A DNA stretch of 64,000 nucleotides from a virus (IMGVR_UViG_3300031784_000003), one strand, 5' to 3'. Shown: positions 17,987 to 62,052, counted from the first letter of the stretch. Numbers and translations are program-made. Notes: generated by a model not told the origin, from the sequence alone.

Positions 17987-20092
17987 TTAAGATTTAAGTG
18001 TAATAACTTTATCCTTTGATGTTTTACCCACTAATTTAAGACTTATAAGTTTGTTTATAATTGCTGTATCAACAAAAGTATCTGGTACGTTAATACGTAA
18101 TTTATTACTTTTGAACGAACCTTTTTCATATACTCTACTAACACCTATAGAACTAAATACACCTACCTTTTCGATGTATGAACCTACATTAACCCAACCA
18201 GTTAATTTTTCATCCTTAAACGTGTTATATTTACTAATATAAGAATCTATTTTTGATGAATTAGTAAATATAGGTGAAACTAATGTGTCATCAGTAATAT
18301 AAAGATCAAAAACTATATCATTAGTATTAGTAGTTAAACCTTTAATATTACCCACATTCATTAAACTTATTAAAGTATTCACGGATTTCATATTTTGTTC
18401 TATTCCACCACCTAAATTGTTTACAAAATCAATAAATAATTTAGGTGTAAAATTAACACCATTAGGTTTTTCATTAGGAACCAATTTAAATGGTGTACTT
18501 GAAGTACTTCCAATTATAGATGGATTAGACACAACACCGTAAGGTGCATATAATCTTCTTAAATTAAAAGTTTTAGGTAGTTCATCCTTTTTAAATCTTA
18601 TTATATCTCCTTCTTCCGTCTGAATATTAGTTGAATCGCAATTGTCTATTAAATAACTTCTCATCGACTTAGTGGCGTTAGTACCTGCATTTGGGAATTT
18701 AGTAGATTCTAAACCAAATCTATAGTAAGATCCTGATTCTCCACCACTACAAAAACTATCGTTCACATAATTCATTTTATAACCTGTCCATAAACACCAA
18801 CCCCCATATATTTTAGGTTCATTACATTTACCTTTATAGAGTTCGGTTTCTGTACTTGAGTCAAATGTACCATACCCATAAAGAGGTAAATATTTTTTAT
18901 ACATATTTTCTTGTAAATCAGATGCAGTAGAACTTGCTTTAAACACAGGTAATTTAGTGGTAATATCATAAACCAACCAACCCTTTTGTAATCCTGCAGG
19001 TGGTGTCATCTTTTGTTCATCTTTTTGTGCAGCTTTCTTTTCTTCACCTTTTTTAATTAGATTACCACAAGCATCTAATTCCATAACATCTATTCTACGA
19101 TAGTCATTAGTTTCAGCTATTGATGGTGTACACGCGTGGTATATTACTGTATTACCTTTACTTAATCTAACTTCAGGAGTACTTGAGTGACATCTTTTAT
19201 CCGTATATTTACATACAAAAGATATCATAATATTTCCAGGTTTATTACCTAATATAGATAAAGCTTGTTGTGGTGTTACAATAAATTTAGAACTTCTACT
19301 CCCACCGTCTTTTGCGTTATTTAAATTTGCAACACCATCTAATTTTATTTTATTTAATTCGACATCGAATTGTGCGTCATCACATTGATGACCACCTCTA
19401 CAAGGAAATTTTGAGTTGGGTTCTTTTACATACATTACTTCTATAGTAAGTCCTTCTAAACAAGCGGAAGGGGGACTTAATTTAAAATTAACTCTTATGA
19501 ATTGTTCATCTTTAAATTTTTGATCACCAGCTTTATCACCACCATCAGGATTCCAAGCAGTCGTACCGAACACAATTTTAGGTGGTTCAAAAATAGGTAT
19601 CGCCGCAATTGTTCCTTGTTTTTCTAATCCCTTAAAATAAGCGGTTAAGAATTTTTGAATTGTTTTTGCTCTTCTTTCCGCCAACACCCCAATATCTACT
19701 GGTATTTTTGGGGTTACTTCATCATCATAATTAGGAACCTGTGATTCTCCAGCTTCTATCTGAATTGTAAATATTTTAGCTTTCCCATCTATAAGACCAC
19801 CACTTTGTTTAATTAATTCTGATTTTGTTTCTAACCAGAGAATCGCCTCTTTCAATTCACCTAAAATCTCTTGTTTAGGCATAGATGTATCTTTCCATTT
19901 ACCAGATTCAAAAGTAGTTTGTAATTCTACCTCTTTTACCTCATCATTAGGGGCTTCTTTTAATAATGAACTCATTTCTTCTTTTATGTATGAACTTATT
20001 TCTTCATTTAATTCATGTCTATAACTATCAGTCCTATAAACCATCAAACGTTTCATCCTTTGCAGTTCTTCATTAAGGGTAGTTTTTTTCAT
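17987..20092 (-). CDS. Hypothetical protein with LNEE leader and OmpA/MotB-like domain
   Basis: MKKTTLNEELQRMKRLM leader; IQIEAGES..PN, LAERRAKTIQKFL, FIRVNF resemble OmpA_C. Confidence 0.5.
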   Translation of the reverse strand: MKKTTLNEELQRMKRLMVYRTDSYRHELNEEISSYIKEEMSSLLKEAPNDEVKEVELQTTFESGKWKDTSMPKQEILGELKEAILWLETKSELIKQSGGLIDGKAKIFTIQIEAGESQVPNYDDEVTPKIPVDIGVLAERRAKTIQKFLTAYFKGLEKQGTIAAIPIFEPPKIVFGTTAWNPDGGDKAGDQKFKDEQFIRVNFKLSPPSACLEGLTIEVMYVKEPNSKFPCRGGHQCDDAQFDVELNKIKLDGVANLNNAKDGGSRSSKFIVTPQQALSILGNKPGNIMISFVCKYTDKRCHSSTPEVRLSKGNTVIYHACTPSIAETNDYRRIDVMELDACGNLIKKGEEKKAAQKDEQKMTPPAGLQKGWLVYDITTKLPVFKASSTASDLQENMYKKYLPLYGYGTFDSSTETELYKGKCNEPKIYGGWCLWTGYKMNYVNDSFCSGGESGSYYRFGLESTKFPNAGTNATKSMRSYLIDNCDSTNIQTEEGDIIRFKKDELPKTFNLRRLYAPYGVVSNPSIIGSTSSTPFKLVPNEKPNGVNFTPKLFIDFVNNLGGGIEQNMKSVNTLISLMNVGNIKGLTTNTNDIVFDLYITDDTLVSPIFTNSSKIDSYISKYNTFKDEKLTGWVNVGSYIEKVGVFSSIGVSRVYEKGSFKSNKLRINVPDTFVDTAIINKLISLKLVGKTSKDKVITLKS

Positions 20093-20190
20093 AGAAAATA
20101 TTTTTTTTATCTATAAATATAAAAAAAATGGTTAAAATGTAAATTCGTATTGTTTTTTTCACTATCTTTACATTATAAAATTAAACAACT

Positions 20191-20763
20191 ATGGAAACTT
20201 CAATCGTAACACAAAATGTAAGAGAGTACAAAGGGAACAATAATTTCATCCTTTCTTTACAAAATGGGCTTAATAAATACGGTTCATTAACATCTAGACA
20301 ATTAGAGGCAGCAACAAATTTCTTCTCTAAATTCACTAAAGAGGAAAAAAAGGAATTTTCTGAAAAACAAGTTAATGTTAATCTTAAAGTTAGTAAGTTT
20401 ATTGCTAAAAGAATTGCGAAGGAAAATAATTTAGAGTTCAATCCTTTTTTGGTTACAATTTCTAAAGTGTTAAACGAAACTCCAAAAGCTTACCAAGTTG
20501 TTGGTAGAATGAATACTTCGGATGTGACTTCTTGTAGATGTTGTGGTAAAGACTTAACTGATTGGAGATCACAAGCAACAGGTGTGGGTCCTGTTTGTTC
20601 TAAATATCTTAAAATACCTTATGTTAAAAATCAGGAGGATGTTGCAGTATTTAAAAAGATGCTTAAACTCAAAATAGAAGAGATAGGTGATTTAACCTTT
20701 TGGGTACCTAAATCTCAAATAGTAGAAGGTTTAAATGAATTATCATCCCAAACTTCTAAATAA
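20191..20763 (+). CDS. DUF6011-like zinc-finger protein
   Basis: CRCCGKDLTDWRSQATGVGPVC. Confidence 0.65.
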   Translation: METSIVTQNVREYKGNNNFILSLQNGLNKYGSLTSRQLEAATNFFSKFTKEEKKEFSEKQVNVNLKVSKFIAKRIAKENNLEFNPFLVTISKVLNETPKAYQVVGRMNTSDVTSCRCCGKDLTDWRSQATGVGPVCSKYLKIPYVKNQEDVAVFKKMLKLKIEEIGDLTFWVPKSQIVEGLNELSSQTSK

Positions 20764-20793: not shown

Positions 20794-21347
20794 TTTCTTT
20801 TAGGTAAAGGTTTTAGTGTACCTGAGAATGTGGTACCACCCACTTTAATTTGTATATCCTCAGTCATTAAAGATTTATCGAAATATTCCTCAATTACAGA
20901 TCTAACCAGATCTTCCATTTCTTCCCTAACAATTTTACGTATAGTTTTTTCATTCACACTATTACTTGTGGTTGTATGGGTATTTTCTTTAACAACAGTT
21001 TTTTTAGTATTTCTTGTTTCTACTAATTCTGAAACATCGTCCAATTCAAATGTATGAAACGGTGTCTCAGGTATATCAATTGGGTTATCTATCATTGCCT
21101 TTTTTATAAAATCAGGCATTTTTGATTTTTCTAAATTTCTGTATTTACCATTAACAGGTGAAACAGAACCAGCAGAATTTTTATGTTTATTAATAAAGTT
21201 TTCGGTTAAATTAGGTATTTCTTTTTCTTCATCACCATAATCAAAACTTTGTTTACCATTCGATGTATTTCCGTAGTTTTCTTCTGTGGCTTGCATAACC
21301 GCCTTTGATCTACTTAAAATTTCTGTTAATCTATTTACATTACTCAT
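20790..21347 (-). CDS. Hypothetical protein (possible head-associated)
   Basis: ORF track; likely start MSNVNRLTE; C-terminal IRKIVREE and LMTE motifs. Confidence 0.6.
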   Translation of the reverse strand: MSNVNRLTEILSRSKAVMQATEENYGNTSNGKQSFDYGDEEKEIPNLTENFINKHKNSAGSVSPVNGKYRNLEKSKMPDFIKKAMIDNPIDIPETPFHTFELDDVSELVETRNTKKTVVKENTHTTTSNSVNEKTIRKIVREEMEDLVRSVIEEYFDKSLMTEDIQIKVGGTTFSGTLKPLPKRK

Positions 21348-21717
21348 TATTATCAAATTTTAAAATCTTATATATCTGTATCATATCTTTGTCACCACTA
21401 GGGTTAAATAATTTTCTAGGTTCATTAAATTTACCACCCAACATTTTTAAATTATCCATTCTATCTACCCTAAAAGTCTTCCACCCAGGTTGAATTGTTT
21501 TAGTGTCTCCACCTATTTGATATACTCTAACTATATCATTTCCTGCCTTAGATATTCCATAACAATATATCTCAACCCACCTTATATTCTTACCTCCAGG
21601 ATCTTCTCCGTCATCGTAATATACAGATGCCAAACGCTTACCATCCATTATTTTCATAATAGAATTTTTGTTTGCTACTTCAAATATAAGTCCTTCAGCT
21701 AAATTGTAAAGTTTCAT
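21340..21717 (-). CDS. WYL-like (SH3-fold) domain protein with MK..LIFE leader
   Basis: SVYY, RWVEIY, RVYQ, GWKTFRVDRM pattern of WYL domains. Confidence 0.6.
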   Translation of the reverse strand: MKLYNLAEGLIFEVANKNSIMKIMDGKRLASVYYDDGEDPGGKNIRWVEIYCYGISKAGNDIVRVYQIGGDTKTIQPGWKTFRVDRMDNLKMLGGKFNEPRKLFNPSGDKDMIQIYKILKFDNNE

Positions 21718-23496: not shown

Positions 23497-26397
23497 ATGC
23501 CAATAAATAAATTTACAACATTATTAGATCTTTCTAGACAAGCCAAAATATTGACAGGTGAAACTGCCACTTTTGATGGTAAAATATCTTCAGGAATACC
23601 ATTTAGCGGATACCCTACAGGCGTAGATACTGCAACAACAGTTTCTTTAGGTGTAATATCCACACAAACTGCAGTATTTAGTGGAGGGACAGGTACAACT
23701 GTGTTTGATGTTTCAAACATATATTCACCTTATTATAACCCTTCATTTGATGCATTTAGTGCAGATACTTGGTCAAACCCATTATTTTCGGCAAATACAT
23801 CAGGTTTAACTTTACCAATTACTATTTTACTTACAGGTCCAGATGTACAAATAGTTGGACCGTTTTGGACTTTAACACAAACGGGATATACTGGAGAATA
23901 TATTATCGGAACTCAATATACAGGTTATTCTGTCACATATTCTTTTAATAGCGTTACAACAATTTCTTCGACAGATACAATTAGTGGATTTACTACGGCA
24001 TCACAAGAGATTTTTTCTGCAGGAACTTTAGATTATAAAGGTCCGTTAGATTATTTATATACGTCAGAGGATGCAACCATAAAAGGTAGATTAACCACAA
24101 ATAAATTAACTATAGAGAATGGTGCTAGTTCAGCCACCACAAATTATCTATTAACACAAGTTGATGATAGTGGTAAAGCTGGGTGGGCATCTCCATCATC
24201 ATTACTTTCGGGAATAACTACATTGGATTATGTGTTAACAAATGGTAATACTACAGGATCTAATTGGATTGTAGTTGATAGTGGTTACGGATTAAATTCT
24301 CAAAGTAGTTCATTTTATTCTCAGGTTGGAGTTTCTCCAACAATCATAAATATATACACTGGTGATGATTTCGCAACCGCAAGTAAATGGTCTAGAATAA
24401 GTGCAGAATCATTTACACCAACACCAAGAGCTGACATAACAACAAATGATGGTGTTAGTCAAACTAATTTAGGGGTAACAAAAGATAATATACTCGTTCA
24501 AGGAGATGATCCTGGATTTAGTGGTATAGAATATTTTGCTGATTACTCAACAAACTATACAAACAGAAGTTTAGTAGATAAAGAATATGTTGATCTTAAT
24601 TCAGGTTCGGATTTTACTGGGGGTACGGTAACGGGTACAACAACATTTACAAATGGTTTAAGTGCAAATACAATATCTGCAACAACAATAGGGTCATCAG
24701 GTGATTGTGTGGATGACATTTATGTTTCAAACATTCATTCTTGTTCACCTTTAAATATAAACCCACTCGATGAAGGAAATATTTATTTTGGTTCTTCTAG
24801 TGGTATCACAATTGACTTAACAAACAAAAGAGTTGGTATTGGGACAAATAACCCTCAATACCCATTAGAAATTAGTGGGGCAACAAATGAGAGGTTTTAT
24901 TTTTCTCCATCATCCATCGCTCCTACAATATCATTAGTTTCAGACGTAACAAATCAATTAACTCAATTCGTGATAGGTCAAACAGTATCGAGCATTGGAG
25001 TATCAATGGGTGTAAGAGGTTCAACTGAACCAACATTTTCTACTTATGGAAAACAGGGTGATTCATTTATTAGGGCAGGAGACTTTTCAAATGGATTGAA
25101 TATCATAGAAGGTCCAAACGGAACTAAAGAAAATTATATTAGATTTTATGCTGGACAAACCGCAGATCCATCAAACATACCTGATATACATATTCAGGGG
25201 TCAGGGACAACAAGAGGTTATATAGGTGTACGAACCTATTCGCCAGAATATTTAATTGATGTTAATGGTAATAGTACCAGACTTCTTTTGGTAGATACCT
25301 ACACTGGTGCGGACGCACCCTTCAAAGGTTTTGTATTCTCTGGTAATAGTAATAACGTACCACAAATAGTTGTCTCAACTAGTAATATTAGTGGTGGTAA
25401 TGGGTTGGGTTTACAAATGGGTGTTTTGGGTAATAATATAACACCAACAAGTAGTACACAATTGCTTGGTACTTTGGGTGATACATATTTAAGTTCAAAC
25501 GCACAGACAAACAACTTTAATATCCTTAATAGAAATGGTGGTAGTGGTACTAACCACATAAGAATGTATGCTGGTGTGAATAGTGTTACTGCAGCACCAA
25601 ATTCAGATTTCCATATTCAAGGTGATGGGGTAACAAGAGGTTACATTGGTATAAATACAGATACTCCAATAGAAAGAATACACGTAGTTAGTACATTATC
25701 TAGTAAAATTAGATTAGATGCTGATATTAATAATACAGATGAAACCGCTACTGCTGAAATATTATTAACTCAAGATGGTTATGGTAGTACTGCAAATATT
25801 GGTATTTCTGCAGATGTTAATAATGATTTATTGATTGGTGTAAACTCTGGTGGTGGTACAACTCCAGATATTAGATTTAACACTCGTTCTGATGGTACAG
25901 TTTTTACTACGAGTGCCGACACAAAAATGATATTAAAAAATGATGGTAAATTAGGTATTAATACAGAAAACCCTTCTGAAATATTAGATGTTAGTGGTAA
26001 AACAAAAACTATAGAATTCCAAATGACATCTGGTGCAACCGCAGGATATGTTTTAACTTCAGACGCTAGTGGTAATGCTAGTTGGCAATCAGTTTCTGGT
26101 GGTACAGGTGGTGTTCCTGAGGCAACTACCGCAACTACAACCACAATAAATTTTACAGGACAAACTATATATTATAATGCAACTACACCAGGTACTGGTA
26201 ACATATCACAAAACTTAACTGGGGCTAAGTTAGGGTTAATCCAAAAAATATATCATAATGATGTGGCAGAACCTACCTACCCTGCTGGTTGGGTTTTAAT
26301 GGGTGATGCAATATACTTCACATCTACCTTAAATATAATATATGCTGAATGGGCTACTGGTTCTAGAGTAGAATATTGGTATGTTCAAGAACAATAA
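23497..26397 (+). CDS. Tail fibre/virion adhesin-like protein
   Basis: 966 aa, Thr/Ser/Gly-rich; GGTVTG..FTNGLSANTISAT shaft motif; repeated VGIGT/IGINT..P beta-helix spacers. Confidence 0.7.
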   Translation: MPINKFTTLLDLSRQAKILTGETATFDGKISSGIPFSGYPTGVDTATTVSLGVISTQTAVFSGGTGTTVFDVSNIYSPYYNPSFDAFSADTWSNPLFSANTSGLTLPITILLTGPDVQIVGPFWTLTQTGYTGEYIIGTQYTGYSVTYSFNSVTTISSTDTISGFTTASQEIFSAGTLDYKGPLDYLYTSEDATIKGRLTTNKLTIENGASSATTNYLLTQVDDSGKAGWASPSSLLSGITTLDYVLTNGNTTGSNWIVVDSGYGLNSQSSSFYSQVGVSPTIINIYTGDDFATASKWSRISAESFTPTPRADITTNDGVSQTNLGVTKDNILVQGDDPGFSGIEYFADYSTNYTNRSLVDKEYVDLNSGSDFTGGTVTGTTTFTNGLSANTISATTIGSSGDCVDDIYVSNIHSCSPLNINPLDEGNIYFGSSSGITIDLTNKRVGIGTNNPQYPLEISGATNERFYFSPSSIAPTISLVSDVTNQLTQFVIGQTVSSIGVSMGVRGSTEPTFSTYGKQGDSFIRAGDFSNGLNIIEGPNGTKENYIRFYAGQTADPSNIPDIHIQGSGTTRGYIGVRTYSPEYLIDVNGNSTRLLLVDTYTGADAPFKGFVFSGNSNNVPQIVVSTSNISGGNGLGLQMGVLGNNITPTSSTQLLGTLGDTYLSSNAQTNNFNILNRNGGSGTNHIRMYAGVNSVTAAPNSDFHIQGDGVTRGYIGINTDTPIERIHVVSTLSSKIRLDADINNTDETATAEILLTQDGYGSTANIGISADVNNDLLIGVNSGGGTTPDIRFNTRSDGTVFTTSADTKMILKNDGKLGINTENPSEILDVSGKTKTIEFQMTSGATAGYVLTSDASGNASWQSVSGGTGGVPEATTATTTTINFTGQTIYYNATTPGTGNISQNLTGAKLGLIQKIYHNDVAEPTYPAGWVLMGDAIYFTSTLNIIYAEWATGSRVEYWYVQEQ

Positions 26398-26403
26398 TTT
26401 TTT

Positions 26404-28542: not shown

Positions 28543-28543
28543 T

Positions 28544-28750
28544 ATGTTAGAAATTAAAAATCATACAGAAGAAATATGGTGGATTATTAGAAAAAATGAT
28601 AATTCAGTTATACATTATGGTGTAACACCTGTGGGAATGGTTACACAATCAGGGTTAGATTTATTAGAAACGTTTACTAATGAAGAAGAACGTGATAAAA
28701 AATTATTAGATTATGGTATTACGGCAACAACTACTAACGATAATATTTAA
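28544..28750 (+). CDS. Small hypothetical protein (possible fibre-associated)
   Basis: ORF track; directly follows DUF285 gene. Confidence 0.55.
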   Translation: MLEIKNHTEEIWWIIRKNDNSVIHYGVTPVGMVTQSGLDLLETFTNEEERDKKLLDYGITATTTNDNI

Positions 28751-28794
28751 AATATTACCACCTATTAATTAATCTATAGATATTTATTATTATA

Positions 28795-30459: not shown

Positions 30460-30470
30460 TATTTATTAAT

Positions 30471-32333: not shown

Positions 32334-32338
32334 TTTTT

Positions 32339-48717: not shown

Positions 48718-51567
48718 ATGGCATCAACAGACAGAATTTTTGTGAGTCCTGGGGTTTTTACTTCTGAAAAGGACTTAACATTCGTAACTAGACAAGTTGG
48801 GGTTACTACATTGGGTTTATTAGGTGAAACACCTAAAGGTCCAGCGTTTGAACCAGTCTTCATTTCTAATTACGATGAATTCATTAGTTATTTTGGTGGG
48901 TTAAATCCTGAAAAATTTAAGGCTAATGGTTTTAATAAGTATGAATTAAATTATATTGCAAAATCATATCTAACCCAAACTAATCAATTATATGTAAGTA
49001 GAGTTTTAGGTTTATCAGGTTATAAGGCAGGAAATGCTTGGTGTATCACATTAGATTCATCAGCTGACCCATCTACTACGGCTATTACTAATACAACATC
49101 TTACGCACTTTTATTAACGTATTCTGCTACAACTGCAGGTACACCAGTTTCAGTGACATTCAACTCACCTGTTTTAACATCACTTTACAATGATGGACAA
49201 ATTGATGGGTTATTTACTTCGGTAGGGTTACTTAGTGTAGGGGATAGTATTTCAATCACTGATCCAGAATATGTAAAAACAGGATCTAGTTTTAGTGGTG
49301 CTACTTTTGATATGGAAGTTATCACTAAAGGAAGTGGTGGTTCGGGATATGTAACAGGAACAACTAGTGGTACTGTTGTCACATACACTGCCTCTGCTTA
49401 CGCAGATATTGATGGTAGTGTTATCGCTACTTTAAGATCTAGAGCTTCTTATGATGGTACAGAAACATTAACATATGAAGTAACTGGTGCAACTGATACA
49501 GTTATGACAAATACTTCGTTTATTACATCTGATCCATTAGCATCATTTAATATTACAGGTACAACTTATAATGGTAACACCTTCAACTATGAAGTTTCTT
49601 TAGATAGAACTAAAAAGAATTTCTTACCGAGAGTATTTGGACAATCTACACAAGATAAAGAAACAGAATTATTCGTTGAGGAAATTTATGGAAATGTATT
49701 AGAAGATTTAATAAGTGCTGGTAAAGTAAGAGGATTAGATACTTCATTTGTAAACATTGGTTCTACAACTACAAATAACTTAAATAACTATTTAGAAGGT
49801 TGGAAAACTGCAGTATCTCCTTGGGTTCTTTCAGAAGTAAAAGGTACAGGTGCAGGATCGACATTACAAAGATTATTTAGATTTGTAACAATATCTGATG
49901 GTAACACTGCAAACAAAGATGTTAAATTTTCAATTATAAACATTCAACCAGATAATAAAACATTTGACTTATTAGTAAGAAAGTATGGTGATACGGATGC
50001 AAATCCTAACATAGTTGAGAAATATTCATCACTTTCTATGGACAGTAATTCAAGTGGATATATTGCTAGAAAAATAGGTACAACTGATGGAGAATTTCCA
50101 TTAAGAAGTAAATATATAATGGTAGAACTTTGGGACGGTAACGATCCAGATTTAGGAAACCACTTCCCTGCAGGGTTTGAAGGTTTCTTAAATAGAACAT
50201 ATATTGGTTCTAACAGAACGGCATTACCACCAAAAATAGAATATAAAACACAATATAACGATTTCAACACATCTAAATTAAGAAAAACTTATTTAGGTTT
50301 AAATAGTGATATCGGTGTGGATCAAGACTTCTTTAATTATAAAGGTGTAAATGCAGTTAACAATGGTGTTTACACAGGAAGAACGGCAGGATTCCACTTA
50401 GATGTTAACGCAACTAATTCATTAATCGATTTAGGTTCTGAAAGTTATGTTCCTACACTACAAGTTGGTATATCAGCATTTACTACAGACCTTTCTTTAA
50501 TAGGTGGTCCATATGAAAAAGTGGCAGCGAGAAAATTCACATTCACATCTTATGGTGGATGGGACGGATGGGACGAATACAGAACCAAAAGAACTAACGG
50601 TGATTCATACACTAAGGCAGGAACAAAAGGAGCATTAGGTTTATCTAAAGGATTATTTAATACATTTGTAACTTCTGAAGGTGATGAAGGTATTACTTCT
50701 GATTACTACGCATTTTTAAATGGTATATATACTTATAACAATCCTGAGGCAGTAAATATTAACGTATTCGCAACACCAGGTATTGATTTAAGAGATAACA
50801 TCAGTTTAGTTGAAAATGCAGTTGACGTAATAGAAAACGATAGAGCGGATTCATTGTATATTATTACAACACCAGATGTTGATTCAGATGGTTTAGCAAT
50901 ATCTGCAGATGAGGCAGTATCTATAGTTGAGGATTCTGGTATCGACTCAAATTATTCCGCTACATACTGGCCTTGGTTACAGATGGTAGATAGTGAAAAC
51001 AATAGATACGTTTGGATACCACCAACAGTAGAAGTTGTTAGAAATATCGCATTAACAGATAACGTAGCGTTCCCTTGGTTCGCAGCAGCAGGTTTAAACA
51101 GAGGTACAACTACCGCAGTTAAGGCTAGAGTAAAACTTAAATTAGACGATAGAGATGATCTTTACGCTGGTAGAATTAACCCTATGGCAACATTCTCAGA
51201 TGTAGGTGTGGTGATATTTGGTAACAAAACATTACAAGTTAGAGAAAGTGCACTTAATAGAATAAACGTAAGAAGATTATTACTACAAGCAAGAAAACTT
51301 ATTTCCGCAGTATCTATCAGATTACTATTCGAACAAAATGATGCGGTTGTTAGAAACCAATTCCTAAGTTTAGTAAACCCTATTTTAGATAACATCAGAA
51401 AAGAAAGAGGTTTAACTGATTTTAGAGTAACATTAGACGATACACCTGAATCTATTGACAGAAATGAATTAAATGGTAGAATTTTTATTAAACCTACAAG
51501 ATCATTAGAATTTATCTCAATAGAGTTTAACATTACTAACACAGGTGCAAGCTTTGATAATATATAA
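48718..51567 (+). CDS. Contractile tail sheath protein (T4 gp18-like)
   Basis: SPGVFTSEKD, GETPKGPAFEP, YWPW, WFAAAGLNRG, INPM, GNKTLQ, LNRINVRRLL, LFEQND, FIKPTRSLEFI. Confidence 0.96.
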   Translation: MASTDRIFVSPGVFTSEKDLTFVTRQVGVTTLGLLGETPKGPAFEPVFISNYDEFISYFGGLNPEKFKANGFNKYELNYIAKSYLTQTNQLYVSRVLGLSGYKAGNAWCITLDSSADPSTTAITNTTSYALLLTYSATTAGTPVSVTFNSPVLTSLYNDGQIDGLFTSVGLLSVGDSISITDPEYVKTGSSFSGATFDMEVITKGSGGSGYVTGTTSGTVVTYTASAYADIDGSVIATLRSRASYDGTETLTYEVTGATDTVMTNTSFITSDPLASFNITGTTYNGNTFNYEVSLDRTKKNFLPRVFGQSTQDKETELFVEEIYGNVLEDLISAGKVRGLDTSFVNIGSTTTNNLNNYLEGWKTAVSPWVLSEVKGTGAGSTLQRLFRFVTISDGNTANKDVKFSIINIQPDNKTFDLLVRKYGDTDANPNIVEKYSSLSMDSNSSGYIARKIGTTDGEFPLRSKYIMVELWDGNDPDLGNHFPAGFEGFLNRTYIGSNRTALPPKIEYKTQYNDFNTSKLRKTYLGLNSDIGVDQDFFNYKGVNAVNNGVYTGRTAGFHLDVNATNSLIDLGSESYVPTLQVGISAFTTDLSLIGGPYEKVAARKFTFTSYGGWDGWDEYRTKRTNGDSYTKAGTKGALGLSKGLFNTFVTSEGDEGITSDYYAFLNGIYTYNNPEAVNINVFATPGIDLRDNISLVENAVDVIENDRADSLYIITTPDVDSDGLAISADEAVSIVEDSGIDSNYSATYWPWLQMVDSENNRYVWIPPTVEVVRNIALTDNVAFPWFAAAGLNRGTTTAVKARVKLKLDDRDDLYAGRINPMATFSDVGVVIFGNKTLQVRESALNRINVRRLLLQARKLISAVSIRLLFEQNDAVVRNQFLSLVNPILDNIRKERGLTDFRVTLDDTPESIDRNELNGRIFIKPTRSLEFISIEFNITNTGASFDNI

Positions 51568-51575
51568 TAACAATA

Positions 51576-51601
51576 TGGGGGTTAATTACCCCCACTTTTT
51601 A
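51576..51601 (+). terminator. Intrinsic terminator after sheath gene
   Basis: TGGGGGT-TAATT-ACCCCCA-CTTTTTT. Confidence 0.75.
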
Positions 51602-51615
51602 AAAATAAAATAAAG

Positions 51616-51900
51616 ATGAAAATTAGAAAAAACGGACAAACAATCACTCTATCTGAATCAGATATGAAAAGAATTGTAAAAAAATTATTAAGAGAGGAAG
51701 CTGATCCTAAAGAAGATTTAGTTGTATGTTGTAAAACGGCAGGTATTAAACCACCTACATCATGTTTATCAGGAGACTATGCTAAATGTTTAGAAGAAGT
51801 AGGTAAAGTAATTATGACTGATCCTATTGGTGAAGGTATGAAGGCTATTGCAGCATTAAATTGTCTTAAAGAAAAAGCTAATTCACCAATTAAAAGTTAA
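51616..51900 (+). CDS. Small Cys-containing protein with LSES leader
   Basis: ITLSESDMKRIVKKLLREE. Confidence 0.65.
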   Translation: MKIRKNGQTITLSESDMKRIVKKLLREEADPKEDLVVCCKTAGIKPPTSCLSGDYAKCLEEVGKVIMTDPIGEGMKAIAALNCLKEKANSPIKS

Positions 51901-51929: not shown

Positions 51930-52352
51930 ATGAAAAAAAGGATAGTTAGACTAACTGAATCTGATTTAAGAAGAATAGTTAAAAGAGTAATCAGAGAAGA
52001 TATGGGAGGAATGGACGATGTTCACCCTACTTATGGTAACGTTAACTTCAATGAATTAACTAGAGATCAAATCTTAAATTTAGGTAAGGATAATGATGAT
52101 GATGAATACTACGGTACATTTGATGATACATATATGGTAGATAAAAATGATAGACCTGGTAAATTTGATTATTCGGATTTTGAAGAAGAGGAATTTTCGG
52201 ATTTTGATTCATATAGAAAAAGTAAATATGGTAGAGATCCTAAAAACAAATGGGATTTAAATTCACCTGATGAAGATCAAGGCAGAAGATTTTTTAACGC
52301 ATATCAAGAAAAATCTGGCGGAAGACCTTTTAAAGTAAGAAGGAGAAGATAA
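51930..52352 (+). CDS. Acidic protein with LTES leader
   Basis: MKKRIVRLTESDLRRIVKRVIRE. Confidence 0.7.
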   Translation: MKKRIVRLTESDLRRIVKRVIREDMGGMDDVHPTYGNVNFNELTRDQILNLGKDNDDDEYYGTFDDTYMVDKNDRPGKFDYSDFEEEEFSDFDSYRKSKYGRDPKNKWDLNSPDEDQGRRFFNAYQEKSGGRPFKVRRRR

Positions 52353-52368: not shown

Positions 52369-52396
52369 AAAAAACCCATCATTGATGGGTTTTTTT
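52369..52396 (+). terminator. Intrinsic terminator
   Basis: AAAAAACCCATC-ATT-GATGGGTTTTTTT. Confidence 0.85.
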
Positions 52397-52419
52397 ATTT
52401 AGTTTAAATATTTATAATT

Positions 52420-55517: not shown

Positions 55518-56006
55518 ATGGCTGATTTATTAATGAGAATGCCTGTTCCTTACGAACCACTAAGAAAGAATAGGTTTATTTTGAGATTTCCAGATGAATT
55601 GGGAATTCAAGAATGGTGGGTATCTACAACTAGCCGACCAAAATATACGAGTCAAGAGGTGGAGATACCTTTTTTAAATACTTCTACATATGTGATTGGT
55701 AGATTTAACTGGGAATCAATCTCTGTAACTTTTAGAGACCCTATCGGACCTTCTGCGACACAAGCATTAATGGAATGGGTTCGTTTACACTCTGAAACTG
55801 TAACGGGTAGACAAGGTTATGCTGCGGGATATAAAAAGGACGTAGAGTTAGAAATGTTAGACCCAACAGGTGTAGTAGTTCAAAAATGGATTTTACAAGG
55901 AACTCAATTAAATGATGTGGATTTCGGTGGATTAGATTATTCATCTTCTGATTTGGCAGATATCACTGCAACACTTAGATTTGATAGAGCAATTAACGTA
56001 TTCTAA
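55518..56006 (+). CDS. Tail tube protein (T4 gp19-like)
   Basis: YEPLRKNRFILRF, WESISVTFRDPI, GYKKD..L.MLDP.G..VQKW.L.G, TLRFD. Confidence 0.9.
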   Translation: MADLLMRMPVPYEPLRKNRFILRFPDELGIQEWWVSTTSRPKYTSQEVEIPFLNTSTYVIGRFNWESISVTFRDPIGPSATQALMEWVRLHSETVTGRQGYAAGYKKDVELEMLDPTGVVVQKWILQGTQLNDVDFGGLDYSSSDLADITATLRFDRAINVF

Positions 56007-56027
56007 TTTCATATAAAACTTAAATAT

Positions 56028-56056
56028 AAAAATCCCATTATTCAATGGGATTTTTT
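56028..56056 (+). terminator. Intrinsic terminator after tube gene
   Basis: AAAAATCCCATT-ATTC-AATGGGATTTTTT. Confidence 0.85.
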
Positions 56057-56107
56057 GTTTTTATTTAATATTTATTTATTAGAATAATTATATATAATAA
56101 AAAAATT

Positions 56108-57199
56108 ATGGCAAGAAAAATTTTAAATTTAAATGAAGAATTAAAAAGGATAAAATCTTTATTTACTGAAGAAAGAATGTATGGTAATCTTAATGAAGAT
56201 GTATCTGAATGTCAGTGTGAAGACCCTAATGGTGATCTATACGGTAAACTTAATGAAGAAACGGGTCTATGTGATCCTGAGTTATGTGAATCAGAAGGAG
56301 ATGATGATAATAAATCCACATCAGGCGTTCCCTCAGGTTTTATTGAATTAACGTCATCTAAGAAAAATGAAATAGAAAATGATGAAACAGATTCAATTAA
56401 ATTTTATGAATCAAAACAAGTGGGTGGTAAAACATATGTGAAAAGAATGTCTTTTGAAAAAATAAAACAAAAAGTAGGATATATTGATAAACCAAAACCA
56501 GGAAGAGATATGGACTACGTAAAAAGAAAAATAAAAGACGATAAAGGTGTACCTGTAGAAATTTATATCTCTAAAGATGGTGAATTAAACTTCATGACAA
56601 AAAAAGAAGGTAAAGCAATTAGAAAAGATATTAGTAAAGATGTAAAACAAGATAAGGGTGTTATCGATGATAATATAGATAGTTGTAAAGAACATCTTAA
56701 AGCTATGTATAAAGCTTGGAAAAAGGGTGCTGGTCCTGGTGAATTAGAAGATTTTGGGTTTGAGGCAGATGCATATAAATCTGTTGAAAGATGTATGGCG
56801 AATTTCTATAATAGATTTGAAAAAGATGATGGAGTATTTTCTAGAATTGGAGTTGGTAGAGAGGATATAATGCAAATGGTTAAATCTTTTCAAGACGATG
56901 ATTTAGTTGGTGATTATAGAAGTGGAGAAGGTCAAGTTCAAAAAGGTGTAGAAGGTGAAAAATATACGGTTGAAAATGCTAGAGGTACTAAATTAGGTGT
57001 CATAAAGAAAAAAACAGGAAATCAGTATAAATTTAATGGTGTAAGAGGATATATATTTATAGAAAAAAGAAATGGTGTTTTACAATTTAAACCATTTGTT
57101 TTAGGTCCAATTTTTAAAGCGTTAAATTTAAATGTTGATACTAATAAAATAACGGTAATCGAAGGTGGAGAAAATAACGCATTATTTAGAGTTAAATAA
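56108..57199 (+). CDS. Hypothetical protein with LNEE..FTEE leader
   Basis: LNLNEELKRIKSLFTEERMYGNL, shared with 59890 gene. Confidence 0.7.
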   Translation: MARKILNLNEELKRIKSLFTEERMYGNLNEDVSECQCEDPNGDLYGKLNEETGLCDPELCESEGDDDNKSTSGVPSGFIELTSSKKNEIENDETDSIKFYESKQVGGKTYVKRMSFEKIKQKVGYIDKPKPGRDMDYVKRKIKDDKGVPVEIYISKDGELNFMTKKEGKAIRKDISKDVKQDKGVIDDNIDSCKEHLKAMYKAWKKGAGPGELEDFGFEADAYKSVERCMANFYNRFEKDDGVFSRIGVGREDIMQMVKSFQDDDLVGDYRSGEGQVQKGVEGEKYTVENARGTKLGVIKKKTGNQYKFNGVRGYIFIEKRNGVLQFKPFVLGPIFKALNLNVDTNKITVIEGGENNALFRVK

Positions 57200-57201: not shown

Positions 57202-59049
57202 ATGAGTAAAAAAATTTTCATAACAGAAAGTCAATATAATAGAATTTTTAGTGGTGACAATTTTTTATTTGAAGCGGATGATAAAAAGGATGCTGAAAAT
57301 GCTAAAAAATTTTTAAGAAGTATTGGTTGGCCTAACGATATAATAGGTGGATCGTTATCACAAAATCATGTTTTTGCACAATCAGTATTAAATGCATTAA
57401 AGCAATTAAATAATGTTTATATTGCAGAAAAGGTAATCACTGGTACTAAGGGTAAATATGATGTTTGTATCTCTAAACCAGGATTAGGTACTTGTAATGT
57501 TGCGGCTGGAGGTAGTCTATATGCAGCAAAAGACTTTAGTGATTTAGCAAATAAAATTTCTAATAAGACTATTGGTGATAATAGGGCTTCTGATATCGCT
57601 AACAATGACACAGTATACTTTCAATTCGGTAAATTACAAAATGAATTAAATACGGCTTTCAAATATGATAAATATGCTTGGAAGTCAGAATATTTTCCTG
57701 ATGGGTGGTGGAATTTTTTTAGTACATATTTTGGTACAGATAATTATACACAAATAAAAAATAGAATACAAAAAATCCAACCTTATAATATTAATTACAA
57801 TAAAAGTACTTTAAATCAATATGAAAAGGGTACTAGTCTTTGGAATTACATATCAGATTGTTTTACTGATTTTCATTGTGCGATGGATGTTGCCTCTATT
57901 GCGGTTTTAGCAATACCAGGAGTTGGAATGGCTTTAAGTGCGGGTATAGACTTTGCAAATGCAGCCACATATGGTGTTGATGCGTATAACGCAAAAACAA
58001 AAGAAGAAAGAGACGCTGCAATTATTGCAGGTGGATTAACTCTTTTTGGTGGATTTTTAGGTGGTGGTATTGGACAAACAAAAAGAATTTTAACTAAAGG
58101 TAGTGCAAATCCAAAAGTTTATAGATATGCTGATGATGTCATTAAGAGAATCGATGACGAATTACCATTACTTAGAGATGTAAAAACTAATGTAAAAAAC
58201 CAAAAATTAACAACCATTTATAAAGAAACTGCCGAAAAATATGGATTAAAAGATTCAGAAATATTATTAGGTCATGATATTATAGATGATTTCGCAAAAA
58301 TTGATCCTAAAGTTGCAAAAATTTATAGTGATGCTTTAACCACTATAGAAAGTAAGATAGGTAGGGCTAATTTATTGACAGTTGCTAAAAATAAAAATTT
58401 TAAAAATCTTGTCTTACAAAATAATGGTGATGTTGTAACATCACTAAAAGCGTTTATGAAGACTACTGCAGGTAAGGAGGCATTACAAGAATTAGGGATG
58501 TTTGTAATTCTTTCAGAAGTATTATCTGAACCAACAGTTGCAAAATGGTTAAGTGATAAAATTAATCTAATACAACATAGTTTAAAACCAACTGTTCAGA
58601 CTACTATTAAAAATGATGGTTATGATTGGAAGACAACTAAAGAAATATTTTTTTCTGATGGTTCTACTAAAGATAATACTTTACTTTTAAAGGCATATGA
58701 AAAAGGTTGGAGACCTTGGACTAAAAGTGAAGAATTACCAAATGAAGAGGAGATGCAAAAATCTAGAGAGTGGTTATCTAAAAATCCTAGTTTCCAAACT
58801 AAAAAATTTAAAGATTGGTTGTCTACACAAGCTTCTGAATTAGGGAAAGAAAGTCTTAGTGGTAAAGAATCTTTAGGTGTAGAAATGACACCTGTTGACG
58901 CAAAAGACAGAAAAGAAAATGTGAGGTACGCTGATACTAAAGAAGAGATGGACGCTTTAAAACCTGGGATAGATGATGGTAAAAGTGGTGAGGAGGCAAT
59001 AGATTTGTTAGATAAACAACTAGAAGAATATTTAAAAAGTCAAAAATGA
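57202..59049 (+). CDS. Protein with ITES leader and pre-toxin-TG-like hydrophobic segment
   Basis: IFITESQYNRI; H..MDV..IPGVG..ID.ANA..Y..A..GG segment. Confidence 0.6.
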   Translation: MSKKIFITESQYNRIFSGDNFLFEADDKKDAENAKKFLRSIGWPNDIIGGSLSQNHVFAQSVLNALKQLNNVYIAEKVITGTKGKYDVCISKPGLGTCNVAAGGSLYAAKDFSDLANKISNKTIGDNRASDIANNDTVYFQFGKLQNELNTAFKYDKYAWKSEYFPDGWWNFFSTYFGTDNYTQIKNRIQKIQPYNINYNKSTLNQYEKGTSLWNYISDCFTDFHCAMDVASIAVLAIPGVGMALSAGIDFANAATYGVDAYNAKTKEERDAAIIAGGLTLFGGFLGGGIGQTKRILTKGSANPKVYRYADDVIKRIDDELPLLRDVKTNVKNQKLTTIYKETAEKYGLKDSEILLGHDIIDDFAKIDPKVAKIYSDALTTIESKIGRANLLTVAKNKNFKNLVLQNNGDVVTSLKAFMKTTAGKEALQELGMFVILSEVLSEPTVAKWLSDKINLIQHSLKPTVQTTIKNDGYDWKTTKEIFFSDGSTKDNTLLLKAYEKGWRPWTKSEELPNEEEMQKSREWLSKNPSFQTKKFKDWLSTQASELGKESLSGKESLGVEMTPVDAKDRKENVRYADTKEEMDALKPGIDDGKSGEEAIDLLDKQLEEYLKSQK

Positions 59050-59234
59050 TAGTTTTAGAAATACAAAAAAAAATAGATGATATAAAAAATAGGTTAGATG
59101 AAATTAATAATCTATTTGATATTTATAATATAAATGATGAAGAAAGTATGAATTATTTTATTAATGAAATACAATCTTATAAAGAAGAATTAAAAAAAAT
59201 AAGTGATGAAAAACTTAAAAGAACAAATAAGTAG
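59046..59234 (+). CDS. Small coiled-coil hypothetical protein
   Basis: ORF track; ATGA overlap with upstream gene; overlaps next gene by about 30 bp. Confidence 0.4.
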   Translation: MIVLEIQKKIDDIKNRLDEINNLFDIYNINDEESMNYFINEIQSYKEELKKISDEKLKRTNK

Positions 59235-59877
59235 AATAAAAAATCTAATGTTATTATCTGAACAATGTGGCACTGATTTAAATCAATGTGAAGAAGATTT
59301 AGAAAATAAAGGATATAAGGTTTTTAGTCCTACTGAAAGTAAAAATATTTGTGACGATAATGAAAACATACAATGTTTAGAATCATCATTCTCATCATTA
59401 AGTGGAAAATTAAGTGTTAGTTCTGCAGGAAACTCTGTTAAAGATTGTTTTGTACTATTAAAGAGTAATCATCAAACAATGGGAATACCAACGTTTCATT
59501 TTACTTTTTATTCTGACGGTCAAGTCGTTTTATCATTTTTATTAAATGAAAATAATGATAAAAAGAAATTAGTGTATAGATCTAAATATGAATGTAGTGG
59601 TGGTTCTGTAGATATTAAAGGTGGTGCGGGTTTTAAATATATTGGTGTTAAGTCAGGAAACGTAGTTAAGGCAGAAAATATAACTTTTATTAATGATAAT
59701 AATAACAATGTTGTACTTAATGATGCTCAGGCAGTTAAAATGGAACTTAAAAGTGGAGAATTAAAATACCAAGATGTTTTAACATATTATATGAATAGAG
59801 CTGGATTATATACAGGAAATGTTTTAAATAAAGGATTACCATATAATCAAATAGTGGCATTATTAACTCATACATAA
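59203..59877 (+). CDS. Hypothetical protein with LKEQ..LLSE leader
   Basis: MKNLKEQISRIKNLMLLSEQ. Confidence 0.7.
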   Translation: MMKNLKEQISRIKNLMLLSEQCGTDLNQCEEDLENKGYKVFSPTESKNICDDNENIQCLESSFSSLSGKLSVSSAGNSVKDCFVLLKSNHQTMGIPTFHFTFYSDGQVVLSFLLNENNDKKKLVYRSKYECSGGSVDIKGGAGFKYIGVKSGNVVKAENITFINDNNNNVVLNDAQAVKMELKSGELKYQDVLTYYMNRAGLYTGNVLNKGLPYNQIVALLTHT

Positions 59878-59889
59878 AAAAAAATAAAT

Positions 59890-62052
59890 ATGAAAAAAAG
59901 ATATACTAATTTAAATGAAGAAGTGAATAGAATTAAATCTCTATTTACTGAAGAAAGGTTATATGGTAATTTAAAAGAAAATAAATTATTAACTGAGCAA
60001 GGTATAGGTAAAAAACTTGCAGATGCGTTAGAAACTGCAAGTTCTTCTGTTTCTAAGGCAATTAAAAATGTTGACCCAAAATTAGCCACAAATTTTTTAA
60101 ATTCAGAAATCAATACTTTTGATGACTTAGCGAAACATTTAAACGATTATAAATCTATATGGAAAGCTATGGGAATTAATTGGGATTATGCGAATGACGC
60201 AATTTTATCATTTAAAAAATGGTCAGATACTGGATTTTTAAAAAGTGCAGACGATAAATTAATTTTACAAGTTATCAATGATTTACCTGTGGAAGGTGAT
60301 TTAAGAGGTATGGTATTTGATTTATGGAAAGATAGTAAAGGAAAATATACCCCACCTAAATCAAAAAATCAGACTACTATTGTTAGTAAATCTAATAAAG
60401 GTGAAAATGTTATCCATAAAGTAGAAACTGTTGGTGGTAAAGAAAAAATTGAGACTTACTCAATAGAGAGTGATGGGATTAAAAAAGATGACGGTTACGA
60501 CCCAAATAGGGCTAGTGAAGAAGTTAATTCACATTTTGATGGGGATGATTTAGTTTCTGGTGGAGGAAGTAGTAAAATCACTACTGATGTGTTAAATGCT
60601 AAAGGTAATCCAGATAATATAAAAGGTGAAATTATAAATGCTATTGAGGAAGGATTTAATAAAATATCAGGTAGAGGTGGTAAACAAATGACTTCTGATG
60701 AAATTGTTGAACAGATTAAAAATGGGGGAGTTTTAATGGTAAAACGATCTGATGGTTCTTATAGAGTAATAAATACTATAGAATTAATAGAAATGGAAAT
60801 AGATCAAAATTTGGATATAACTAACATAAAAAGTATTGGTAAAAAAGATGTAACACCACCAGTTAATGTTCCACCAGTTAAAGATGGTGGTGAATCAGTA
60901 GATGTACCTACAGACGGTGGTAGAAATGGAAGTAAAAAATCTAAAAATAATTTTTCTTCAAATATTGGTAACATAATTGGACAAGGTTTCAGATATGTGT
61001 TCCCAACAGTTAGTGAAATATTAAAACGTGTATCTTTATTAGGTCCAGGTAGTAAATTTTATTCTAAACAAAGATTTAGTATTGTCGATTCGAGATTTCC
61101 AACAGAAGGAGGTTATAATAAACGAGCTAACAAGATTTTGAAGGGTTTGTTGGAAAACCCTGCAAGAATATTGTTTGTAGAACAAACTGCTTTAATTACT
61201 ATTGTTGGTATAGCAAAATCAATCGAAAGAGGAACACTACCTAAAGATGAAGAAGCTATAAATACTGCAATTGCAGATTATAAGAATAGTGAAATATGGA
61301 AATACAGTGTACCGTATTTATTAGCGGGTACACTTGCCGATGTCTATCAGAGGATTATTAATTTAAGAAAAATTAGTTACGCTTCTTGTAGAAGTAAAGC
61401 AGAAAAAAAATTAAATCCTAATGATCCTCTTTATGAAATAAAGAAAAAGGAAGTTGAAGTGGAAATTGAAGCGTGTAAAGATGAGGTAGACTCATTTTTT
61501 GATAAAATTGATGCTTTTGGAAAAGACTTTACTAAATTTAAAAAAGAATTTGCCGACCTTAGTAATATAGATCAATGGGATCAATCAAAAATAGAAAAAT
61601 TTTGTGAAGAAGATTTAGCGGATAAACAAGAGGTTTTGAAAAATTTGAGGGTTAGTTTAACTAATTTAGATGATGAAATAAAAAATCGATTTAATACAGA
61701 TGACATTAAAAAAAGAGAATATATTGTTACTATAATTAATACTTTGAAGAACGTTATGCCTGCGTTACCTGAATTACCTACTCCAGAAGAAGTAATTAGT
61801 CAATTAATGCCTAAAACGGAAATTAATGGTAAAAAAATAACCCCTTTAGATATACAAGGGTTAGAAACTAAATTAAACGCAGCATGTGCTGAATACTGGA
61901 ACAAAAAAAGAGATGTTCAAGATCAAATAGTTGATCCAGATGATTATGAACAACCAATAGATACAATTAATGTTGACCCTGACACTAAAGAAAGTTTAGA
62001 CGCAGATTTTGGTATGATAGAAGTAATTGTAGAACCAATAGAAATAGTTTAA
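59890..62052 (+). CDS. Mosaic protein: 56108-type leader + 52420-type 125-aa module + unique C-terminus
   Basis: LNEEVNRIKSLFTEERLYG, then LLTEQGIGKKLADALE...; hydrophobic stretch in C-terminal half. Confidence 0.7.
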   Translation: MKKRYTNLNEEVNRIKSLFTEERLYGNLKENKLLTEQGIGKKLADALETASSSVSKAIKNVDPKLATNFLNSEINTFDDLAKHLNDYKSIWKAMGINWDYANDAILSFKKWSDTGFLKSADDKLILQVINDLPVEGDLRGMVFDLWKDSKGKYTPPKSKNQTTIVSKSNKGENVIHKVETVGGKEKIETYSIESDGIKKDDGYDPNRASEEVNSHFDGDDLVSGGGSSKITTDVLNAKGNPDNIKGEIINAIEEGFNKISGRGGKQMTSDEIVEQIKNGGVLMVKRSDGSYRVINTIELIEMEIDQNLDITNIKSIGKKDVTPPVNVPPVKDGGESVDVPTDGGRNGSKKSKNNFSSNIGNIIGQGFRYVFPTVSEILKRVSLLGPGSKFYSKQRFSIVDSRFPTEGGYNKRANKILKGLLENPARILFVEQTALITIVGIAKSIERGTLPKDEEAINTAIADYKNSEIWKYSVPYLLAGTLADVYQRIINLRKISYASCRSKAEKKLNPNDPLYEIKKKEVEVEIEACKDEVDSFFDKIDAFGKDFTKFKKEFADLSNIDQWDQSKIEKFCEEDLADKQEVLKNLRVSLTNLDDEIKNRFNTDDIKKREYIVTIINTLKNVMPALPELPTPEEVISQLMPKTEINGKKITPLDIQGLETKLNAACAEYWNKKRDVQDQIVDPDDYEQPIDTINVDPDTKESLDADFGMIEVIVEPIEIV

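Follow-up and report, generated by a model that had tools for sequence, protein, structure and literature searches.

Tagged Genes of the Window

The DNA analyzed here is a stretch of 64,000 nucleotides (nt) from an uncultured giant phage of the T4 type, IMGVR_UViG_3300031784_000003, which we refer to in its full length as the window, and our analysis concerns a group of its genes that encode a related leader in front of otherwise different protein bodies. The original prediction had listed at least ten genes with such an N-terminal leader and had interpreted them as head-packaged, ejected proteins with exchangeable cargo. Seven of these ten, named here by their first nucleotide in the window (17987, 51616, 51930, 56108, 57202, 59206, and 59890), carry what is almost certainly a genuine portable tag, an eighth (52420) has retained a degenerate copy, and the remaining two (38331 and 21340) do not belong to the family. 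The tag comes in three classes (A, B, and C), each of which closes with a motif of the [LI]-x-E type, and it is likely that the tagged proteins are incorporated into the virion in one way or another. The genes in question are listed below with protein lengths in amino acids (aa), arrows at proposed cut sites, and bit scores against a profile built from relatives only:

17987..20092, minus strand: divergent class A tagged gene, 701 aa; tag region aa 1–31 (nt 20000–20092) with two L-N-E sites; 12.5 bits
51616..51900, plus strand: class B tagged small gene, 94 aa; tag aa 1–28 (nt 51616–51699), from L-S-E to L-L-R-E↓E; 21.8 bits
51930..52352, plus strand: class B tagged small gene, 140 aa; tag aa 1–23 (nt 51930–51998), from L-T-E to V-I-R-E↓D; 21.8 bits
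52420..55446, plus strand: fusion protein, 1008 aa; degenerate tag aa 1–25, N-domain in common with 59890, C-terminal HAD phosphatase domain at about aa 757–1008
56108..57199, plus strand: class A tagged gene, 363 aa; tag aa 1–30 (nt 56108–56197), ending G-N-L-N-E; 30.8 bits
57202..59049, plus strand: class C tagged gene, 615 aa; tag aa 1–24 (nt 57202–57273), conserved in 13 orthologues
59206..59877, plus strand: class A variant tagged gene, 223 aa; tag aa 1–19 (nt 59206–59262), ending L-L-S-E↓Q; 14.9 bits
59890..62052, plus strand: class A tagged gene, 720 aa; tag plus linker aa 1–37 (nt 59890–60000), ending L-L-T-E; 28.2 bits
38331..38708, plus strand: listed earlier, not of the tag family; no profile match, M-K-x4-L-L-K-E at chance level
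21340..21717, minus strand: listed earlier, not of the tag family; no profile match

In the seven tagged open reading frames (ORFs) the motif starts 3–12 residues past the initial methionine, and in relatives the tag is nearly always found 2–13 aa past an ATG; for gene 59206, which has its ATG at this position, a GTG at 59203 is also open. The modular build is illustrated by 56108 and 59890, which share 68% identity in their first 31 aa and are unrelated thereafter: The cargo of 56108 is rich in cysteine, while the tag of 59890 is followed by a helical N-domain that is also present in 52420. The latter is a paralogue of 59890 with 63% identity over the 160–180 aa of the N-domain, so that the claim of unrelated cargos, which stands for class A with its at least 25 unrelated groups, does not extend to the N-terminal cargo parts of these two proteins, the remainders of which are unrelated. 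Within 52420 we further noted a HExxH sequence at aa 371 (nt 53530–53544) and an internal tag remnant, Y-I-T-E-S-F-K-K (aa 747–754, nt 54658–54681), located at the junction to the HAD domain. The cargo of 51616, which has orthologues in L001, L003, L006, and L008, is Cys-rich; that of 51930 is acidic, apparently disordered, and has nothing but the tag in common with other loci; that of 57202 contains a hydrophobic stretch of the glycine-zipper type. Orthologues of 59206 have kept the tag in L006, L010, and L014. The divergent gene 17987 scored 19.4 bits in another profile run and lies apart from the tail islands described below; its cargo has no relatives in the fetched loci and no family match. 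Its 3′ end is abutted by a 74-aa ORF (window 17762–17986, plus strand) with a lipoprotein-type signal peptide and a lipobox-like L-T-S-C.

Searches of the ten listed proteins against Pfam, PHROG, and NCBIfam returned zero matches, as did a Pfam search with ten tagged or head proteins of relatives. Among the cargo labels assigned earlier, HAD is borne out by the fold, and no support was obtained for the other four (peptidase, OmpA-like, WYL-like, and pre-toxin-like): The peptidase label corresponds to the lone HExxH of 52420, and the pre-toxin-like and OmpA-like labels correspond to sub-threshold look-alike leads from the Atlas (PT-TG, 0.83, for 57202; OmpA, 0.77, for 17987, within noise).

Architecture and Conservation of the Tag

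The class A consensus reads M-K-x(1-6)-L-N-E-E-I-x-R-(I/M)-K-S-L-F-T-E-E-R-L-Y-G-N-L-x-E and is found in 56108 and 59890 and, as a variant, in 59206 and 17987. Class B, to which 51616 and 51930 belong, follows M-K-I-K-K-N-G-x-x-I-x-L-(T/S)-E-S-D-(L/M)-K-R-I-V-K-x-(V/L)-(I/L)-x-E. Class C is represented in 57202 by M-x-K-K-I-(I/F)-I-(T/S)-E-S-Q-Y-x-R-I-F; its consensus over the 13 orthologues is I-I-S-E-S-Q-Y-K-R-I-F-L-x-E-Q, and divergence sets in directly after (F/L)-L-x-E-Q. This boundary is general and agrees with the protease-type ending that had been proposed: In all classes the shared part stops at [LIV]-x-E, with conservation ending at hydrophobic-x-E-(Q/E) in every tag class and likewise in the N-domain family. 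Among 148 class A representatives, 122 have [LIVM]-x-E at the end of conservation, mostly as L-V-E↓Q or (I/V)-x-E. Most tags additionally hold an earlier L-(N/T/S)-E, and a tag has two or three candidate cut sites. Moreover, tag and cargo are exchangeable: The central domain of 57202 is preceded by a class C tag in the window and by a class A tag in P0120, P0091, and P0001, and the N-domain of 59890, which carries class A in most members, carries class C in L014:7799.

Known types of leader peptides were considered and rejected. The tags are charged and amphipathic and lack a hydrophobic run, which speaks against Sec, Tat, or lipoprotein signal peptides. The double-glycine leaders of bacteriocins, which are processed by C39 peptidases, have 15–30 aa and an amphipathic L-(S/T)-x-x-E-L-x-x-I pattern that looks alike by eye; we dropped this comparison because no class has Gly-Gly at the boundary (class A has an invariant G-N-L and then x-E), because the cargos reach up to 1000 aa, and because the genes are set in a virion gene cluster.

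Excess of the Tag Over Chance

A leader profile scan of the kind that the original prediction had proposed was carried out with a profile of 37 sequences from relatives, which contained no window sequence and was run against all six frames of the window. Six window ORFs stand out at 12.5–30.8 bits, all with N-terminal matches, and the next best match in the six frames reaches 5.0 bits; the seventh member, 57202, has a class C tag and is supported by orthologue conservation instead of the profile. Genome-wide counts were taken from the relatives G001 and G002. A regular expression for the motif gave 15 N-terminal and 9 internal matches over 6,195 and 99,228 positions, respectively (odds ratio 27, Fisher p = 3e-13), that is, the motif is commoner at N-termini than elsewhere, which is the comparison on which the earlier proposal had staked itself. 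With a stricter pattern, 12 N-terminal, 6 C-terminal, and 2 internal matches were found in all fetched loci, where the internal positions number about 262,000. The minimal [LI]-x-E, too, has roughly double the frequency at residues 2–22 that it has elsewhere (38% vs 18% in the window, p = 3e-4).

These numbers have to be held against the explanation that the tag is an artefact, either of compositional chance in a Lys/Glu/Leu-rich proteome or of a translated repeat at the DNA level such as a promoter, a recombination site, or a recent duplication. The window has a G+C content of 24–33%, M-K-K starts are typical of AT-rich genomes, and the minimal [LI]-x-E is found in 18–21% of random 21-aa windows in these proteomes; 38331 and 21340, which match no profile, show the minimal motif at this background level. 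The profile, however, splits the members (12–31 bits) from all other six-frame ORFs (at most 5 bits), the motif is confined to termini, and hundreds of independent clusters match with E values down to 1e-21. Furthermore, each invariant class A residue is encoded by 2–5 synonymous codons, including five Leu codons at one invariant Leu: Because synonymous codons vary at invariant residues, the tag is selected at the protein level and is not a DNA repeat or a recent duplication. We therefore regard an artefact as extremely improbable.

Distribution and Cargo Diversity

The class A profile (40 positions, alignment A1) was searched against 1.84 billion cluster representatives from clusters at 50% identity and identified 405 clusters at E ≤ 1e-3, 239 of them at E ≤ 1e-10, with the best E values at 1e-21. 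Nearly all of the best 150 matches begin at residue 1 of proteins that are 34–962 aa long, and the few offset matches among them either have an N-terminal copy as well or a doubtful start upstream. The class A cargos fall into at least 25 components without detectable mutual similarity; the expected cargo variability is thus found among the relatives and the metagenomic clusters. In a Pfam analysis of 119 class A cargos we found PG_binding_1 (8), MORN (6), PG_binding_3 (5), and MORN_2 (3) as well as Peptidase_S41, EcoEI_R_C, and DUF1664 (1 each), which places binding modules of the PG_binding and MORN types in about 12–16% of the cargos. For contigs encoding a PG_binding cargo, one 6-kb contig was obtained, the neighbors of which are uninformative.

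A tblastn search with the class A tag, the class B tag, and the cargo of 59890 gave no match in 50,697 GenBank phage records, and for this reason no cultured relative with proteomics was found. The tag family stands outside Pfam and NCBIfam and is absent from GenBank phages; it is also new in how long it is and in that it has an invariant core, comes in three interchangeable classes, is used at C-termini and junctions, and has a repertoire of this size.

Variable Islands in the Tail Module

With the exception of 17987, the tagged genes of the window are embedded between three conserved genes of the tail module:

48718..51567, plus strand: tail sheath gene, left anchor of island 1; Pfam Phage_sheath_1C, tblastn match to gp18 of T4-like phages
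55518..56006, plus strand: tail tube gene, gp19-like, anchor between both islands; after the sheath in the conserved order
62089..62868, plus strand: conserved gene of the hub region (cluster c2, tentatively gp26-like), closing island 2 on the right; adjacent to the tube in 15 of 15 mapped relatives

The tube protein has 162 aa compared to 163 aa in T4 gp19, with 24% identity over 76 aa (pairwise E 2e-4), and related tube proteins are encoded on more than 598 contigs in IMG/VR; the similarity of the c2 protein to T4 gp26 is weak (E 0.04). In the 15 mapped relatives, of which the order sheath, tube, c2, c3, c7, c17, c18 is characteristic, L063 has nothing inserted between sheath, tube, and c2, whereas the window and its closer relatives have two variable islands of tagged genes, which separate the sheath from the tube and the tube from c2, respectively. 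The tagged genes are co-directional with the surrounding structural genes. Their cargo content differs between contigs with 90–96% identical tube proteins, and orthologous cargos are 25–67% identical where the tube is 96% identical: Because cargo content and identity vary while the tube stays conserved, the tagged genes are accessory and fast-evolving.

Two further observations concern the islands. Terminator-like GC-rich hairpins with a T-run, viewed in the sequence, follow the sheath gene (51570–51615), gene 51930 (52370–52419), and the tube gene (56020–56107) and suggest separate transcription units for the islands. With 14 occurrences per strand, the T4 late-promoter octamers (TATAAATA and its complement) are about as frequent as expected in DNA of 72% A+T and were not used as evidence. 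In three loci of more distant relatives (L026:6764-7453, L027:6882-7571, and L035:6560-7243, all minus strand) the sheath–tube island contains a gene for a protein of 227–229 aa with a C-terminus that is ClpP-like by eye.

Such a location raises the possibility that the tag is a retained docking peptide for the tail, the tail lumen, the baseplate, or the virion exterior, by which interchangeable modules would be plugged onto a conserved structural partner. Not only do all window copies bar 17987 lie in the two islands flanking the tube, between sheath and hub, but the tag class also tracks the island: Class B and the HAD gene occupy the sheath–tube island, classes A and C the one that separates the tube from the hub. 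The 25-aa class A tag with its invariant residues is what a specific interface would have, and some cargos are binding modules (PG_binding_1 in 8, MORN in 6, and PG_binding_3 in 5 of the 119). On the other hand, docking would have no need of the [LI]-x-E ending that all classes share, and no partner was identified.

Tag Copies at C-Termini and Fusion Junctions

The leader had been described as N-terminal, which is true for nearly all copies; the tag is, however, also used at C-termini and at fusion junctions. In the distant relatives L022–L035, the gene immediately before the tube encodes a protein of 771–841 aa that terminates in [LI]-x-E-E-(L/V)-x-(K/R)-I-x-x-L-M plus 1–4 residues, a position that again would suit docking. 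A full tag is found at the junction of two fused cargos in L001, L020, and P0001, and tandem tags occur in P0002, P0003, and P0012; both arrangements resemble polyprotein processing and thereby argue against a docking peptide. The copies outside the N-terminus fit a label in which cut sites flank a binding helix on both sides and do not fit a strictly N-terminal signal.

In L001:11760-15302 and L020:13242-17207, a 57202-like gene runs without a stop into the second cargo, with the class A tag at the junction and a Met two residues before it, which could mean that the two cargos are truly fused, possibly as a polyprotein, or that translation of the second starts internally. The tag is likewise used C-terminally in a 278-aa protein of G002 (2390–3226, L086), the C-terminal end of which consists of two tandem copies of L-T-E-S-E-x-x-(R/K)-L.

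Structural Models of the Tag and the HAD Cargo

The first 190 aa of 59890 were modeled with AlphaFold2 (AF2) from an alignment of 20 sequences. In this model, the tag helix (aa 8–17) has a predicted local distance difference test score (pLDDT) of about 50–56, aa 19–37 are below 50 and disordered, and from about aa 41 onward a domain is predicted at 80–95. The confident helical domain starts just after L-L-T-E-Q, and the tag looks, as far as the model goes, like a detachable appendage to the cargo domain. A search of BFVD with the N-domain of 59890 revealed nothing significant.

Cargo structure prediction, which had been suggested as a check, was informative for the C-terminus of 52420 (cluster c6), for which a HAD fold is predicted with a pLDDT of 88. 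The best matches of the model are the T4 Pnkp 3′-phosphatase (VIA Z 10.8), the Pnkp1 phosphatase (Z 9.6), and T4 PNK (Z 9.2), followed by many HAD enzymes; searches of the cargo against Pfam and of the model against the PDB by Foldseek were not significant. The invariant alignment columns F-D-W-D-D-N, I-T-A-R, K, and S-D-D-D correspond to motif I, motif II, the lysine, and the acidic motif IV of HAD enzymes. In relatives, the domain is encoded by a free-standing gene of 272–287 aa with its own class C-like tag. Because the T4 Pnkp 3′-phosphatase acts on cytoplasmic nucleic acid ends, the HAD cargo is easier to reconcile with delivery into the cell than with exposure outside the virion, and an intracellular-type enzyme of this kind is a further point against docking.

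Head Protease and Capsid Genes in Relatives

In T4, the prohead protease gp21 cuts after L/I-X-E, and a propeptide of 10 aa, the capsid-targeting sequence (CTS), binds cargo to the core; the internal proteins of T-even phages are diverse and have only the CTS in common, Alt has a C-terminal propeptide as well, and the propeptides of phiKZ contain redundant cut sites (PMC9026906, PMC3012670). A protease of the gp21 family (Peptidase_S77, PF03420) is encoded in three of the five longer relatives that were searched (G002, G004, and G005); the S77 protease gene of one relative lies at L084:11535-12224. Contig G002 is particularly close, as its tube protein is 91% identical to that of the window and tagged genes are present. 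Its head module has the order TerL, portal, two small proteins, protease, an acidic scaffold-like protein of 500 aa, and a gp23-like major capsid protein (MCP), and at least three tagged genes are located directly upstream of TerL. The MCP has L-L-T-E↓A at residues 57–60, where T4 gp23 has F-L-T-E↓A at 62–65, and the scaffold-like protein has L-N-E-Q at 47–50. The tags also resemble N-termini of T4 head proteins, namely gp24 (M-A-K-I-N-E-L-L-R-E↓S), Alt (M-E-L-I-T-E-L-F-D-E↓D), and gp22 (M-L-K-E-Q-L), a likeness seen by eye in sequences too short for statistics. A complex prediction that paired the S77 protease of G002 with the N-terminal 60 aa of a class A protein gave no answer (score 0.00), which is evidence neither way.

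The presence of tagged genes beside the head module of G002 adds to the points against a docking peptide for the tail or exterior, which we consider unlikely on balance but still the main and a serious rival. The same data bear on the possibility that the tag has no virion role at all and is a shared N-terminal helix for localization within the cell, oligomerization, chaperone recognition, or controlled proteolysis. The cargos are diverse and mostly without assigned function, co-location with late genes indicates co-expression at most, and nothing seen here ties the proteins physically to virions; yet the tags resemble propeptides of T4 head proteins and end in the S77 motif, they are embedded on the same strand in virion gene clusters of both tail and head, and they are predicted to be detached and flexible, unlike an oligomerization domain. 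We deem a purely intracellular function distinctly unlikely.

Proposed Mechanism

The best single reading, to which motif logic and the analogy to T4 lead us and to which we assign an even chance, is that the tag targets the scaffold core and is removed by the S77 protease at [LI]-x-E. The tag is built from an initial [LI]-x-E, a short amphipathic helix (extended in class A by the invariant Y-G-N turn), and, as its third part, the closing hydrophobic-x-E-(Q/E). During assembly of the prohead, the helix would bind the scaffold core in the manner of the T4 CTS. In the next step, the prohead protease of the gp21 family (S77) would cleave the [LI]-x-E sites behind their Glu and thereby free the cargo inside the head, from which it would exit with the DNA at infection. 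In T4, replacing this Glu at the cut position with Asp prevents processing and leaves targeting intact. C-terminal and junction copies would act alike, and fused polyproteins would be cut apart in the capsid. Ejection and an effector role go beyond packaging and cleavage and are further inferences.

Several points weigh against this mechanism. The S77 protease and the T4-type head genes are seen in relatives and not in the window itself, where the tagged genes are among tail genes (sheath, tube, hub) and not among head genes; moreover, the 93%-complete relative G004 has the protease and no class A tag. The original prediction had assumed a short targeting sequence of the T4 kind, and this did not hold: The tag comprises 25–37 aa with invariant residues (E, R, K, L, F, G, and N), including Y-G-N in class A, and its specificity far exceeds that of the T4 10-mer. 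Gln usually follows the proposed cut, compared to Ala, Ser, or Asp at the T4 sites that were viewed, and the Glu after G-N-L-V could partly reflect acidic linkers behind the tag. Finally, peptidoglycan-binding or MORN cargos would be compatible with a tail or surface location as well.

A more far-reaching version holds that the tag is a two-ended, position-independent label ([LI]-x-E, helix, [LI]-x-E) by which a sub-clade of T4-type phages with genomes of about 300 kb fills its capsids with hundreds of swappable proteins, among them polyproteins that would be cut apart there by the prohead protease. We advance it tentatively, as a possibility that is rather less probable than its negation. If it were true, phosphatases of nucleic acid ends would be injected along with the DNA, as would peptidoglycan-binding, membrane-active, and metalloprotease-like proteins, and the delivered arsenal would be much larger and more flexible than the three internal proteins of T4. 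The most complete relative, with 297 kb, is estimated to be 93% complete.

Comparison With Known Systems

The principle of capsid targeting has been known from T4 since the 1990s. There, too, a short terminal peptide that ends with L/I-x-E is attached to unrelated, fast-evolving proteins, as in the CTS of IPI–III and the gp21-processed propeptides of Alt and gp24, and the internal-protein loci of T-even phages are polymorphic. In the lineage of the window, relatives encode both an S77 protease of the gp21 family and a capsid protein that is gp23-like and contains L-T-E↓A. The C-terminal propeptide of T4 Alt is a precedent for C-terminal tag copies (PMC9026906, PMC3012670). In contrast to the T4 CTS, the tag has 25–37 instead of 10 aa, three classes, an invariant Y-G-N in class A, and two or three candidate sites usually followed by Gln; it is used at C-termini and fusion junctions, it is attached to genes of the tail module, and its repertoire comprises 405 clusters for class A alone. 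The similarity in sequence to T4 is a resemblance by eye to the N-termini of gp24, Alt, and gp22. A fourth, short tag type, M-K-x-L-I-(K/R)-K-I-L-(K/R)-E-(E/S), was noticed at the start of several small island genes of relatives (L010:6443-8104, L020:5162-6004, L027:5816-6858, and L035:11281-12199) and matches the T4 10-mer in length and form.

In giant phages (phiKZ gp175, 201phi2-1, SPN3US gp245), a diverged gp21-like protease cuts many large inner-body and ejection proteins of the head after Glu, and the propeptides have several redundant sites (PMC9026906, PMC10052503). Propeptides of the phiKZ type, however, are cut at S/A/G-x-E and not at L/I-x-E and have no common sequence, and the phage group of the window has a T4-type head module. 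A conserved N-terminal peptide with swappable modules in the neighborhood of tail genes is also known from the docking peptides of interchangeable receptor-binding proteins in multi-tailspike phages; these are uncleaved and carry binding or depolymerase cargos, whereas the tag has a protease-type end and a HAD phosphatase among its cargos.

If the tag is a packaging and processing signal, it provides a sequence rule by which virion-delivered proteins, likely host-takeover or anti-defense factors, could be picked from metagenomes, and the clusters found here would be a catalogue of hundreds of candidate delivered proteins, nearly all of unknown function, from large phages of the T4 type, an abundant and uncultured group. 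Tag classes and cargo domains would recombine freely, and a longer, more specific tag would be at hand to try for the loading of foreign proteins into T4-type capsids. Even if it were a docking peptide, the tag would mark interchangeable virion modules.

Other Genes of the Window

In addition to the tail module, the window encodes a family B DNA polymerase and a helicase and contains fibre-like genes. Its first part, at about 1–15 kb, is occupied by a glycan-synthesis cluster on the minus strand: Between 148 and 15094, this one-strand cluster encodes GT2, GT10 (fucosyltransferase-like), and GT11 proteins, a double GT-A gene, two NAD-dependent epimerase/dehydratases, and a transketolase-like pyrimidine-binding/C-terminal subunit. 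A block of large genes at 23497–33904, which may represent the fibre or baseplate, includes a gene (26404–28542, plus strand) for a protein of 712 aa that consists nearly entirely of DUF285 repeats (Pfam E = 0, 10 stretches). A DUF5856 protein (37960–38331, E 2e-20) and a DUF6011 protein (20191–20763, E 6e-9) are encoded among the replication genes.

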